Shown: positions 1,815 through 15,962 of the stretch, one piece after another
Position numbering within the stretch: position 1 is the first letter of the stretch
Layout: each line of letters starts with the position of its first letter
Origin: a virus
Length of the DNA: 16,645 nucleotides
Virus record (IMG/VR): IMGVR_UViG_3300045993_000193
Strand: one strand, 5' to 3'
Program-made: the position numbers and the translations under genes
The notes under the pieces: generated by a model
Database searches by the model: none
Told to the model about the DNA's origin: nothing
The model's input: the letters and a program-made list of their open reading frames with translations, nothing else

Positions 1815-2517
1815 ACTTCACACCGCCCTCGCGAAGGCGAACCTGTTCCTCACCAACCCGGGCAAGGACGGGAAGGGGAACTATGGCGCATTCCTGACGT
1901 TGGATGCCCTGCTGGAGCATGTGCGTAAGCCGCTGGCAACCCAGGGACTGTCCCTGGTACAGGACGTCATCCTCGACGGTGACCGGGTCCAGATCGTCAC
2001 CCAACTCCTCCACTCATCTGGTGAGTCGATCGTGTTCGGTCCCCTCTCCGGGCCTGCCGGGGCGAACTGGCAGCAGCTCGGCGGTGCGATCACCTACGCG
2101 AGGCGCTATGCCCTCATGGCAGCGTTGGGGATCGCCGGTGGGGACGATGACGACGCCCAGGCCCACACTGATGCGAACCCGCAATCCACAGTAGTACGCC
2201 ACACGGGGCCGCTGGGTGCGGCGGAGGCGCGGAAGAACCTCGGCCCAGCCACCACGAAGCAGGTCGGTTTCGTTGCCGCCCTGATGAAAGCCCAGGGGTT
2301 GAACGAGATTGCCCTGAACACGCTGTCCACCAGTGAACTGGGGTTTGAGATGCCGACTGAGGGCCTGTCGAAGTTGACGTTCGATCAGGCGTCGAAACTG
2401 ATTACCCGGATGCAGAAAGCCGGTGAGGGCGTCACCCGGACTAAGTCCACACGCGACGACGACGACCCTTGGGCGAACATTCCTGTCACCGGACCAGATG
2501 GGGAGGTACTGATATGA
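1804..2517 (+). CDS. erf: ERF-family single-strand annealing protein (recombinase)
   Basis: LDALLEHVRKPLATQGLSLVQ and GGAITYARRYALMAALGIAGGDDDDA match the conserved ERF core (TYxRRYxL...LGI...DDD). The in-frame ATG at 1804 was chosen (MTAELHTALAKANL). The C-terminal tail contains DDDDPW. Confidence 0.85.
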   Translation: MTAELHTALAKANLFLTNPGKDGKGNYGAFLTLDALLEHVRKPLATQGLSLVQDVILDGDRVQIVTQLLHSSGESIVFGPLSGPAGANWQQLGGAITYARRYALMAALGIAGGDDDDAQAHTDANPQSTVVRHTGPLGAAEARKNLGPATTKQVGFVAALMKAQGLNEIALNTLSTSELGFEMPTEGLSKLTFDQASKLITRMQKAGEGVTRTKSTRDDDDPWANIPVTGPDGEVLI

Positions 2518-3419
2518 GCATCCAGCGGTACAACACGTACAGCAACCGCAGCGAGGACGGGATATTCGTTCTGTACGACGATCACGTTGCCGCTATGGAG
2601 CAGGCGCAAACCCGTGTACGGGCCAGCATGACCCGCGTGGGTTCCCTGTTCACCGGGTACGGGGGACTGGACATGGCCGTCGGCGGCGATCTGGCGTGGT
2701 ACTCGGAGATAGATCCAGCCGCCTGCACCGTGCTGGAGGCGCACCACTCGGACGTACCCAACCTGGGGGATATCACCCAAGTGGACTGGGGGAACGTTCC
2801 CCCGGTGGACGTCCTGACGGGGGGATACCCGTGCCAGCCCTTCTCCCATGCAGGCAAGAGACAAGGAAGCGACGATGAGCGACACCTGTGGCCCTACGTT
2901 CGAGATGCCATCGATGCGCTACGACCTGGTGTCGTCGTCCTGGAGAACGTGCGAGGCCAGCTCACTCTGGGATTTGGAGATGTCCTCGCCGACCTTTCCC
3001 GAGTGGGGTATGACACTCAGTGGGGTGTTGTACGAGCTTCCGACGCCGGCGCACCCCACTCCAGGGCCCGCGTGTTCATCACTGCCCACCCCGCAAGCAT
3101 CAGACGCGAAGGGCACGAACAGCCTCACCGTCGCGCTATCCCGGATAGGTATACGACAGATGTACCTCTCCGAATGGGTGGCACTGTACGAGGCCGGCTT
3201 GACCGATGGGCTGGAATTGTCGGACGACCTTGTCCTCCTATGAGATACCTGGGCAGCGACGGCGTGACAAGGATCGATCCACGCTTCCCTGAATGGCTCA
3301 TGGGCCTACCGCAGGGGCATGTCACAGGCCACGGGCTACGCCCAGCGCAGGAACTGAAACTATGCGGCAACGGGGTCGTACCCCAGCAAGCCGCCCTAGC
3401 CCTAGCGATGCTCACATGA
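2514..3419 (+). CDS. DNA (cytosine-5)-methyltransferase (uninterrupted frame-0 ORF; see the nested +1 ORF 2875-3243)
   Basis: The motifs seen are SLFTGYGGLD (I), GGYPCQPFSHAGK (IV), VVVLENVRG (VI), DAGAPHSRARVF (VIII), RFPEWLMGLPQGH (IX-like) and GNGVVPQQA (X). GGGGAGG SD lies 8 nt before ATG 2514, which forms an ATGA junction with erf. A 38-aa N-terminal extension precedes the usual MTR-GSLF start. Confidence 0.85.
   Translation: MSIQRYNTYSNRSEDGIFVLYDDHVAAMEQAQTRVRASMTRVGSLFTGYGGLDMAVGGDLAWYSEIDPAACTVLEAHHSDVPNLGDITQVDWGNVPPVDVLTGGYPCQPFSHAGKRQGSDDERHLWPYVRDAIDALRPGVVVLENVRGQLTLGFGDVLADLSRVGYDTQWGVVRASDAGAPHSRARVFITAHPASIRREGHEQPHRRAIPDRYTTDVPLRMGGTVRGRLDRWAGIVGRPCPPMRYLGSDGVTRIDPRFPEWLMGLPQGHVTGHGLRPAQELKLCGNGVVPQQAALALAMLT
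2875..3243 (+). CDS. Nested +1-frame ORF inside the C5-MTase gene (122 aa). It could be an out-of-frame TRD segment, a split subunit or an overprinted gene.
   Basis: AAGGAAG lies 5 nt upstream of ATG 2875. Third-position GC is higher than in the host frame across the whole ORF. It encodes SSLPTPQASDAKG...RQMYLSEWVAL. Its stop TGA 3241-3243 overlaps frame-0 ATG 3240 as ATGA. Confidence 0.4.
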   Translation: MSDTCGPTFEMPSMRYDLVSSSWRTCEASSLWDLEMSSPTFPEWGMTLSGVLYELPTPAHPTPGPACSSLPTPQASDAKGTNSLTVALSRIGIRQMYLSEWVALYEAGLTDGLELSDDLVLL

Positions 3420-14269: not shown

Positions 14270-14661
14270 TGATTACCGCCACCTATCCGATTCGTGTTCG
14301 CAGGCATGCGGGCTGGACAGACACCCTGACCGTGGAGCAGGAGGAACCAGCCGTTGCCCCCGCCACGGGCACCGTGTTCGTCCCTATCGACCTAAGCGGC
14401 TACACCGCCAGGATGCAGGTCCGCGAGTACCTCGACGAGGACGACGACGCGCCACTGCTCGCGACACTAGACACCGCGACGACGGGCATCGTGATCGACG
14501 GCCCCGCCGGAACGATCACCCTGTCCATGCCCGACACCCTCACCGGCCTCATCGACGCAGGACGCTGGGTGTATGACCTGCGACTAGTCCCCTTGGGTGG
14601 GGAAGCCGAATACTTGATCGGTGGCCCGTTCATCGTTGCCCCATCGGTGACAACGCCGTGA
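14269..14661 (+). CDS. Minor tail protein (130 aa, beta-sandwich-like)
   Basis: There is a TGATG junction at 14267-14271. [31 protein letters not shown] resembles a pattern I recall from small actinophage minor tail proteins encoded next to collagen-like fibres. Confidence 0.55.
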
Positions 14662-15962
14662 CTATCCGGATCACGTCGAACCAGACAACCGTCCGCGTCA
14701 CCCCGGACGGGCCGCAACTCGTCACCCGCATCACCTCCCAACTCACGAACGTGCGCGTGACTGCTGAACCGGACGGCACCCCTGTCGTGGTGTCCACGTC
14801 GGTCCGCGGATTCCAAGGCCCCGAGGGGGCGGACGGCCCCGCAGGACCCGCAGGCCCCGCAGGGCCGGAAGGCCCCGACGGCCCCCCCGGACCGCAAGGA
14901 CCAATCGGGCCGGAAGGTGGACCCCCAGGACCGCAGGGACCGCAAGGACTCACCGGACCCACCGGCCCGACAGGACCCACGGGACCGCAGGGCATCCAAG
15001 GCGACCCCGGTACAGCAGGCGCAGCAGGAACGGCAGGGGCAGCGGGAACACCAGGTGCCACAGGACCGACGGGACCGCAAGGCCCACAGGGGCCTGCAGG
15101 CGCAGACTCCACAGTGGCAGGACCTACGGGACCCACCGGCCCGCAAGGTCCGCAGGGACCAGCAGGGGCAGACTCCATCGTCGCCGGACCCACGGGTCCA
15201 GCAGGCGCTGACGGGCTGGACGGTGCCACAGGACCCACAGGACCCACCGGCCCGACAGGACCGGCGGGCGCTGACGGGCTGGACGGTACCGCCGGGTCTG
15301 CAGGTGCGAACGGACTAGACGGTGCCACCGGCCCTACAGGACCCACCGGACCCACAGGACCCACGGGGCCGCAGGGCATTCAAGGCATCCAAGGTATCAA
15401 GGGCGACACCGGAACAACCGGGGCCACCGGCAGCGCTGGGGCGACGGGTTCGGCGGGCGCAACAGGCGCGACCGGTTCAAGTCCAGTGTTCGCCCTCGTC
15501 AACGGTCCCAGTGGTACGGCACTGTCGGGACTGTCCACTACCACGGTGAACCTGTCAGGAAAGAGCGTGATCCTGATTCAGGTGGAGGGCGCGTCAGGGA
15601 CTGTCGGATCGTGGTGGGCGTCAGTCCGGTTCAACGCCGATTCGGGAAGCGTCTACTACAAAAACTCGATCGGGTTCGTCAACGGATCACCCATCATCGG
15701 GACCGGGGCCGGGACGCAGATCGTCCCTGCACAGATCGACTCCGCCGGTCATGCACTCTCATTCATGATGCTGGTTCAGGGCTGCAACGGGACCGGCCCG
15801 AAGGTCATGTCATGGACCGGTGTCGCCTCAGTTACCGCCACCGCGTCCGTATCTCAGACTGGGATCGGCATGTACGTCGGGACCTCCGCGATTACGTCTA
15901 TCACCATCGCATCCGGGTCCGGCAACTTCGACGCCGGAACCCTGTTCGTATACGCAGGATAG
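14658..15962 (+). CDS. Collagen-like (Gly-X-Y) tail fibre with a C-terminal globular domain
   Basis: There is a GTGA junction at 14658-14661. About 225 residues of G-X-Y triplets ([23 protein letters not shown]...) are followed by a 159-aa non-repetitive C-terminus, a likely receptor-binding domain. Confidence 0.85.
14808..15482. repeat. Triplet-periodic G-X-Y coding repeat region with internal duplicated modules
   Basis: The 9-nt GGN-CCN-NNN periodicity is visible. A 21-nt perfect repeat GGCGCTGACGGGCTGGACGGT occurs at 15204-15224 and 15267-15287. The peptide modules [13 protein letters not shown](T/I)VAGPTGP are duplicated. Confidence 0.9.

Follow-up and report, generated by a model that had tools for sequence, protein, structure and literature searches.

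Comparative analysis of a 16,645-nucleotide (nt) stretch of a JGI/IMG metagenomic phage contig (IMG/VR virus record IMGVR_UViG_3300045993_000193, 64% GC; hereafter the window) indicated that its C5-cytosine DNA methyltransferase gene, here termed alpha, contains a second gene, beta, which lies entirely inside it in the +1 frame. As judged from the sequences of related loci, this +1 open reading frame (ORF) is a real and conserved overlapping gene, with purifying selection acting in both frames. We regard it as likely that the locus specifies a two-polypeptide C5-cytosine DNA methyltransferase from one DNA stretch read in two frames, in which beta would dock on alpha and supply the recognition element. 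A preliminary description of this DNA had offered a truly overprinted gene of 122 amino acids (aa) as one of three readings, and it is this reading that the conservation of the +1 ORF and the selection in both frames bore out.

The alpha gene (2514-3419, plus strand, frame 0) forms an unbroken ORF of 301 aa with no internal stop. Its motifs are all read in frame 0 (I FTGYGGLD, IV GYPCQPFS, VI ENV, VIII HSRARVF, IX EWLMGLP, and X GNGVV), in agreement with the preliminary description, whose account of the uninterrupted frame, of these motifs, and of the +1 ORF with its Shine–Dalgarno (SD)-like sequence and its stop at 3241-3243 was reproduced by our ORF reading. Against the Pfam profile PF00145, alpha scored 130.4 bits (cut-off 22), the match covering only aa 41-197, that is, motifs I-VIII, and ending at position 166 of the 324 profile positions; the TIGR00675 score of 109.8 bits was above the cut-off of 100.65. 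Residues 13-171 of M.HhaI matched alpha aa 41-192 (E 4e-16); motifs IX-X were covered by a second, weak match (M.HhaI 271-307 against alpha aa 251-289). Profile scores and motifs thus place alpha among the C5-cytosine methyltransferases. Alpha does not show the monomeric layout of these enzymes, in which a target-recognition domain (TRD) of ~80-100 conserved residues lies between motifs VIII and IX of one chain: it has ~59 residues between the HhaI-aligned blocks (aa 192-251), ~30 of which are unconserved and off-frame, compared with ~100 in M.HhaI.

Conservation of the +1 ORF was assessed on 86 loci (80 IMG/VR loci and GenBank phages) of 40-70% aa identity and 42-75% GC; the column statistics refer to the 84 unique loci that align without gaps, and positions marked with a plus sign are counted in nt from the PCQ of motif IV. 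With the alpha protein held fixed and its synonymous codons redrawn over the span +46..+253, the +1 frame would be expected to stay open in 10.5 loci; it is open in 86/86, and the low-GC loci, among which 0.7 would be expected, have it open in 49/49 cases. The +1 stops in related phages that the preliminary description had proposed to look for were therefore found in none of them over this span. The reciprocal test, with the beta protein held fixed over its module region, gave an open frame 0 in 79 of the 84 loci (10.7 expected) and in 47/47 low-GC loci (2.7 expected), and the five loci in which frame 0 is not open are those where beta carries everything downstream. Since both frames are open against expectation, both appear to be maintained as translated frames. 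Owing to the phylogenetic relatedness of the loci, these figures should not be read as exact probabilities; the effect is nevertheless very large. It is this comparison with relatives that gives the +1 ORF its significance, because ORF length alone is a weak argument in a window of 64% GC.

Individual columns revealed the same double constraint. The +1 residue Pro42 (2998-3000) is the same in 84/84 loci; alpha has A or S there, encoded throughout by xCC, with a third-position entropy of 0. Gly45 (3007-3009) is likewise invariant (84/84), and the corresponding alpha Gly codon is always GGG, again with an entropy of 0. Between PCQ and motif VIII, several more third positions of alpha codons hardly vary, compared with 1.5-1.97 bits at ordinary four-fold sites of the same genes, which is the suppressed synonymous variation in frame 0 that had been suggested as a check. 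The +1 frame of the beta N-terminal domain holds the conserved motif L-P-x-(S/W)-G-M-x-x-(N/S)-G-x-L-Y, which reads FPEWGMTLSGVLY in the window. Downstream of motif VIII, variation among the frame-0 residues follows the pattern xAC, then xCC (Y/H/D/N, followed by P/T/S/A), so that the base that changes occupies the wobble position in the +1 codons CCx-ACx-CCx. Over the module region of 36 loci with the topology of the window, the mean pairwise aa identity was 0.34 in the +1 frame, 0.23 in frame 0, and 0.18 in the +2 frame.

The start codon of beta also appears to be under selection. A +1 Met is found at window position 2875 or one codon earlier in 78/84 loci; in the window it sits within the alpha segment G-x-DDERHLWP, where the T of an alpha Asp codon creates it. 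Among high-GC relatives, this ATG-creating Asp codon is GAT in 19/27 cases, compared with 54/248 (22%) of the other alpha Asp codons (Fisher p = 6e-7). An alternative start upstream, ATG 2848, would give a product of 131 aa. At the other end, the beta stop TGA (3241-3243) overlaps an internal frame-0 Met codon of alpha as ATGA (3240-3243).

The element of beta that we consider a candidate for DNA recognition is the (L/W)PTPxAxDxxG module. In essentially all loci in which motif IV was located, the (L/W)PTP module lies right after motif VIII, at +253..+268, in the +1 frame and never in frame 0. The preliminary description had placed this element in frame after motif VIII in actinophage C5-methyltransferases, which did not hold among the relatives: it is read in the +1 frame in all 84 gaplessly aligned loci. 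Relatives carry 1-6 modules, and 180 distinct modules were collected. A PTP-type string occurs twice in the window's beta, at aa 55-58 and 70-73. The alpha string RASDAGAP of the motif VIII region (2994-3011 and 3037-3048) reads YELPTP in the +1 frame, and the first of the two PTP-type strings is a by-product of the conserved ASD.GAP of alpha.

Codon usage follows the same division. The GC content of third codon positions (GC3) in frame 0 was 0.90/0.70/0.85/0.85/0.80 up to 2813, fell to 0.50/0.70/0.50 (2874-3053), reached 0.80 (3054-3113), dropped to 0.45 (3114-3173) and 0.35 (3174-3233), and then recovered to 0.60-0.70, while the +1 frame gave 0.85/0.85/0.75/0.60/0.70/0.80 across beta; these values are essentially equal to those hand-counted earlier. 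A codon model trained on nine genes of the window, expressed as per-codon log-likelihood ratios, put frame 0 ahead over 2514-2873 (+0.44 vs -0.48 for +1) and weakly so over 3240-3416 (+0.09 vs -0.47), gave a tie over 2874-3083 (+0.12 vs +0.15), and put the +1 frame ahead over 3084-3176 (+0.25 vs -0.45 for frame 0) and strongly ahead over 3177-3239 (+0.84 vs -0.83). The better coding signature that the preliminary description ascribed to the whole +1 ORF thus stands for ~3084-3240 and not for the 2874-3083 part, and frame 0 is not favored throughout by a formal model. The short and acidic beta tail has the best codon score in the whole gene (+17.5 bits in the +1 frame vs -12.6 bits in frame 0 per 20-codon block at 3177-3239), and over the same conserved RWE element alpha uses 65% A/T-ending codons vs ~18% upstream, which suggests that the tail VALYEAGLTDGLELSDDLVLL is itself constrained.

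Homology searches with the separate pieces located the frame changes. The phage family phrog_1008 ("DNA methyltransferase") matched beta aa 1-85 at profile positions 61-150 (E 1.9e-14) and, consecutively, alpha aa 210-300 at positions 215-317 (E 2.7e-21). When betas that occupy a single frame in relatives (L069, L067, L005, and L072, in our numbering of the loci) were aligned with the window by tblastn, their residue 1 fell at 2875 in the +1 frame, the alignment continued as far as ~3123-3186, and it resumed in frame 0 at ~3204-3383 (E 7e-14). Homology therefore switches frame at ~3125-3205, and the spacing of the WG...RW element places the switch near 3177-3180; in accordance with this, RLDRWAGIVGRPCPP aligns with the AIxRWE...RPAPxP element of relatives, frame 0 having resumed by ~3180-3204 and not only at 3240, as had been proposed. 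The frame-0 reading of the bases between motif VIII and this element is unconserved and aligns poorly with relatives, which agrees with its earlier description as off-frame sequence. A tblastn search with the module alone (52 aa) gave a chance-level match only. Coordinates of all features are collected in the table.

Features of the methyltransferase locus in the window (aa, amino acids; frames relative to alpha)
Feature	Position	Strand	Description
alpha	2514-3419	+	Frame 0, 301 aa; C5-cytosine methyltransferase with motifs I-VIII, IX, and X
SD-like sequence AAGGAAG	2863-2869	+	5 nt before ATG 2875
Asp codon GAT of alpha	2874-2876	+	T of the codon creates the +1 ATG at 2875-2877
beta	2875-3243	+	+1 frame, 122 aa plus stop; wholly nested in alpha
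N-terminal domain of beta	2905-3054	+	beta aa 11-60; overprinted on alpha motifs V-VIII
Motif VIII of alpha (HSRARVF)	3057-3077	+	Last conserved alpha element before the +1-dominant region; +228 nt from PCQ in 85 loci
Spacer of alpha, TAHPASIRREGHEQPHRRAIPDRYTTDVPLRMG	3081-3179	+	Frame 0; unconserved off-frame reading of the beta module; poor alignment with relatives
Candidate recognition module of beta, LPTPQASDAKGTNSLTVALSRIGIRQMYLSEW	3082-3177	+	+1 frame; (L/W)PTPxAxDxxG unit, once in the window
C-terminal tail of beta, VALYEAGLTDGLELSDDLVLL plus TGA	3178-3243	+	Doubly coded with the RWE element of alpha
C-terminal part of alpha, GTVRGRLDRWAGIVGRPCPP	3180-3416	+	WG..AI.RWE...RPAPxP element; frame-0 alignment with Graduation gp47 and others
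Motif IX of alpha	3291-3311	+	EWLMGLP, frame 0
Motif X of alpha	3366-3380	+	Frame 0

Sorting the 86 loci by the frames that hold motifs IX and X revealed three topologies. In 55 loci, the type to which the window belongs, both motifs are in alpha and beta consists of the N-terminal domain and module(s) only; in 21, motif IX is in beta and motif X in alpha; and in five, beta carries both motifs and alpha ends after motif VIII. Relatives of 40-56% identity occur in 1949 phage records, and a megablast search of the region against GenBank phages gave no match, so that no close relative is present there. The Mycobacterium phages Graduation (gp47) and A1SD1 (gp80) and the Gordonia phage CheeseTouch (gp88) share the topology of the window with ~46-49% alpha identity and have, at the same place, a +1 ORF with an ATG and GGAG that encodes SSLLPTPLARDSKG...; they differ from it in the number of modules, and each record annotates a single DNA methyltransferase gene with beta absent. 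In Graduation gp47, the +1 frame reads SSSLLPTPLARDSKG... straight after motif VIII, and CheeseTouch has three modules in the +1 frame; in both records alpha alone is annotated. In prophiGD91-2, the first module is in the +1 frame and three further modules are in frame 0, and the Gordonia phage Upyo, whose locus is annotated as two "DNA methylase" genes, has the whole part downstream of motif VIII in the +1 frame.

Two further kinds of locus were observed during this survey. One relative (L086, IMGVR_UViG_3300006802_000867) has its modules and motifs IX/X scattered over three frames, with frame 0 stopping at +195, and may be a truly decayed copy or an assembly problem. The Gordonia phages Hans (MZ322009.1, 2724-4845) and Inspectinfecti (PP978792.1, 2788-4725) have homologous methyltransferase genes that an endonuclease gene, of the LAGLIDADG or another type, appears to interrupt: tblastn matches them in three pieces, between which the endonuclease is annotated, and this may reflect an intron or a homing-endonuclease insertion.

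Profile searches indicated that beta belongs to a large family. At least 1683 beta-like predicted proteins were found, every one of them named "hypothetical" and lacking a Pfam domain, and the beta-like cluster representatives numbered 15068 at E <= 0.001 and 5672 at <= 1e-10; because LPTP modules repeat, these counts may partly include other module-bearing proteins. Gene callers begin most of the beta-like proteins at the conserved Met. An AlphaFold2 model of beta, built on a 122-sequence alignment, has a four-stranded beta-sheet as N-terminal domain (aa 11-60) with a predicted local distance difference test score (pLDDT) of 85-89.

Two characterized enzymes provide precedents and were compared with the window by their published descriptions. 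M.EcoHK31I of Escherichia coli (YGGCCR) is a heterodimeric C5-methyltransferase (Lee, Kam & Shaw 1995, as described in passages of PMC2836561 and PMC3404938). According to these passages, its beta lies wholly within another frame of the alpha gene, both chains are needed, N-terminal deletions of beta reduce its association with alpha, internal Met codons of beta are usable as starts, and motifs I-VIII and X are in alpha with motif IX in beta, the TRD being described as part of alpha; the chains were purified and expressed separately (PMC2836561). The beta of the window is likewise nested in alpha in another frame, and the 21 related loci with motif IX in beta show exactly the motif split given in these descriptions. 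The window differs in that motif IX is in alpha and beta has no catalytic motif, and in that its recognition-type modules are in beta, what would be the variable region of alpha being an unconserved spacer. A blastn search with an EcoHK31I-type relative locus against E. coli genomes gave no match. M.AquI (CYCGRG), described in PMC3404938 after Karreman & de Waard 1990, is split into alpha and beta and resembles the window in having motifs I-VIII in alpha and the downstream part on a second polypeptide. The layout described for it recurs in the five loci in which the +1 beta carries the modules, IX, and X (Gordonia phage Upyo gp54/gp53, L058, L067, L069, and L072), whereas alpha of the window runs through the beta region in frame 0 to IX and X and its beta is fully nested.

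A nested pair has already been annotated in the Paenibacillus phage Tadhana and related Fernvirus phages; in Tadhana, gp54 (534-1604) and gp55 (736-1440, +1) are both named DNA-cytosine methyltransferase and beta has WPTP modules. This low-GC pair differs from the window in its EcoHK31I-type topology, with motif IX in beta (LNPDWVECLMGFP), in its longer beta (234 aa), and in another N-terminal motif (LTWK...LLFRL). Set beside these systems, the window may represent a third natural topology of split C5-methyltransferases, with all ten catalytic motifs in alpha and the recognition module provided in trans by a small overprinted protein. On this proposal, purifying selection would act in both frames of ~70 codons in phages of 42-75% GC, the three topologies would be toggled by single frameshifts that move IX/X, and thousands of phage genes would be concerned, with beta unannotated or "hypothetical"; we judge the chances of this full generalization to be about even.

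We infer that beta is translated from ATG 2875, binds alpha, and recognizes DNA through its module. In the mechanism that we envisage, translation of alpha would begin at ATG 2514, in coupling with the Erf-like gene upstream, and that of beta at its own ATG. The beta-sheet N-terminal domain of beta (~50 residues) would most likely dock on alpha (in M.EcoHK31I, association with alpha reportedly depends on the N-terminus of beta), and its LPTPxAxDxxG module would fill the place that the TRD of a monomeric enzyme takes between motifs VIII and IX. Residues 190-222 of alpha would then be a spacer whose sole requirement is the lack of a stop, so that alpha reaches its C-terminal motifs.

Several observations weigh against this two-chain interpretation. 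At this locus and those of the same topology, it is we who infer that beta is expressed and required for activity, and alpha, holding all ten catalytic motifs, could conceivably work without it. Taken alone, the window gives weak openness statistics, with P = 0.026 for the +1 frame when alpha is fixed and 0.62 for frame 0. An SD-like 4-mer is present in 65/67 relatives, yet 61.4 are expected from the K-R-K-G sequence of alpha alone, and because the alpha protein already predicts this number, the SD-like sequence is not independent evidence. Neither Pfam nor NCBIfam has a family that matches beta, searching the PDB with the sequence of a single-frame beta yielded chance matches only, Foldseek of the beta model against the PDB returned nothing below E = 4, and AlphaFold2 confidence was low for the module and tail. 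Finally, a conceptual composite joining the two frames scored 128.9 bits against PF00145 in the window, no gain over the 130.4 bits of alpha alone, and the composite of the relative L063 spans profile positions 2-321 (its alpha alone 2-196) without a higher score; consequently, it is solely the position and the diversity of the LPTP module that point to a TRD role.

The complete set of catalytic motifs in alpha, the single module and the missing catalytic motif of the window's beta, the weak openness statistics of the window alone, and the low model confidence for the module lend some weight to the alternative that beta is conserved in the family and dispensable or vestigial here. The enzyme would then consist of alpha alone with its motifs I-X, recognition being left to the RWE region as a minimal element or to no element at all, and the +1 ORF would persist by inertia or in a minor regulatory role. 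We nevertheless consider this unlikely, since all 55 of the 86 loci with this topology keep the +1 ORF, its invariant residues, and the module, the module region is better conserved in the +1 frame than in frame 0, and the short, half-unconserved interval between motifs VIII and IX leaves alpha well below the ~100 residues of M.HhaI. A single chain could also be restored by programmed recoding, with a +1 shift just after motif VIII (~3081) and a return near 3177, giving motifs I-VIII, the LPTP module, RWE, IX, and X in canonical element order; the wider profile coverage of the L063 composite and the position of the post-motif-VIII junction at the same nucleotide in nearly all loci are consistent with such a product. 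In a programmed frameshift gene, conservation would start at a shift-prone site and the zero frame would be free downstream. Here, +1 conservation and openness begin ~200 nt before the junction, selection acts on the +1 ATG, frame 0 stays open from one junction to the other although recoding would not call for this, and the sequence TTC ATC ACT GCC CAC CCC has, by inspection, no known shift-prone pattern. In addition, a gene with two efficient shifts would have no precedent, the chains of the precedent enzyme M.EcoHK31I were obtained separately according to the source cited above, and the window composite brings no Pfam gain. We therefore hold recoding to be very improbable. Literature searches on frameshifting in phage C5-methyltransferases turned up nothing specific.

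The preliminary description had joined recoding to decay as two routes to one reading, a shift out of frame 0 and a return at 3240, and the same early +1 conservation, selected start, and open frame 0 argue against both. Decay or an assembly error in a once-monomeric gene, with compensating indels that damaged frame 0 and left a +1 relic, would account for the off-frame look of frame 0 over 3087-3176 in a sequence whose 64% GC easily leaves off-frame ORFs open. It would have to explain an identical alpha protein recorded on six contigs, which excludes a sequencing error, the same arrangement in 86 loci that include low-GC phages, where chance would close either frame, and invariant +1 residues across genes of 40-70% identity, unlike a relic; a compensated-indel pseudogene and a sequencing error were both rejected, and we give this explanation almost no credence. 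Equally improbable is an enzyme made from three translationally coupled cistrons (frame 0 from 2514 to ~3090, +1 from 2875 to 3243, and frame 0 from ATG 3240, with 59 codons carrying IX-X), for which the ATGA at 3240-3243 and a 59-aa product from one gene-caller run on another contig might speak. Frame 0 has no stop throughout 2514-3419, its RWE homology begins at ~3180-3204, upstream of ATG 3240, and relatives have no Met at that position. Of the split-subunit reading in the preliminary description, the separate subunits are thus retained and the third cistron is not, nor is the ATGA needed as a cistron junction in a continuous alpha.

The two-chain interpretation also bears on how such loci are annotated. 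On other contigs in IMG, the same locus was called as a 131-aa +1 ORF ("hypothetical protein") in one case and as a 59-aa fragment from ATG 3240 in another, and in the closer relative L089 (1417-1977) the gene caller picked beta and dropped most of alpha. A nested gene pair explains such conflicting gene-caller models.

The neighboring genes encode an Erf-like recombinase, a large terminase, a portal, a protease-capsid protein, and a collagen-like tail fiber. In the ATGA at 2514-2517, the start codon of alpha shares bases with the TGA stop of the 250-aa gene that precedes it (1765-2517). The product of this upstream gene matches Erf-like families of single-stranded DNA-annealing proteins (phrog_2324, E 3e-32), and the methyltransferase therefore lies in a recombination/replication module. 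Further downstream, the 509-aa product of 8241-9770 matches both the major head protein family phrog_2263 (E 5e-48) and the head maturation protease family phrog_80, is named HK97 prohead protease in IMG, and is probably, judging by these matches, a protease-capsid fusion. The 434-aa product of 14658-15962 has many matches to collagen-like/tail-fiber families and contains repeated stretches.

Orphan cytosine methyltransferases of phages are routinely annotated as single genes. If their specificity part is a separate overprinted protein, predictions of target sites and of anti-restriction made from the annotated protein alone would be incomplete, cloned alpha genes would work only through the co-encoded beta, and codon optimization or recoding of alpha would silently destroy beta. 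What is new here is a topological variant of a known but rarely recognized kind of enzyme. A few enzymes of this construction have been described before, but in phages it is widespread, and the family, which is large, has for the most part escaped annotation. If the two-chain interpretation is true, the family would provide ample natural data on deep dual coding and on the way in which frameshifts reshuffle domains between two chains, and it would offer naturally split C5-methyltransferases for engineering targeted methylation, a use already made of M.EcoHK31I.

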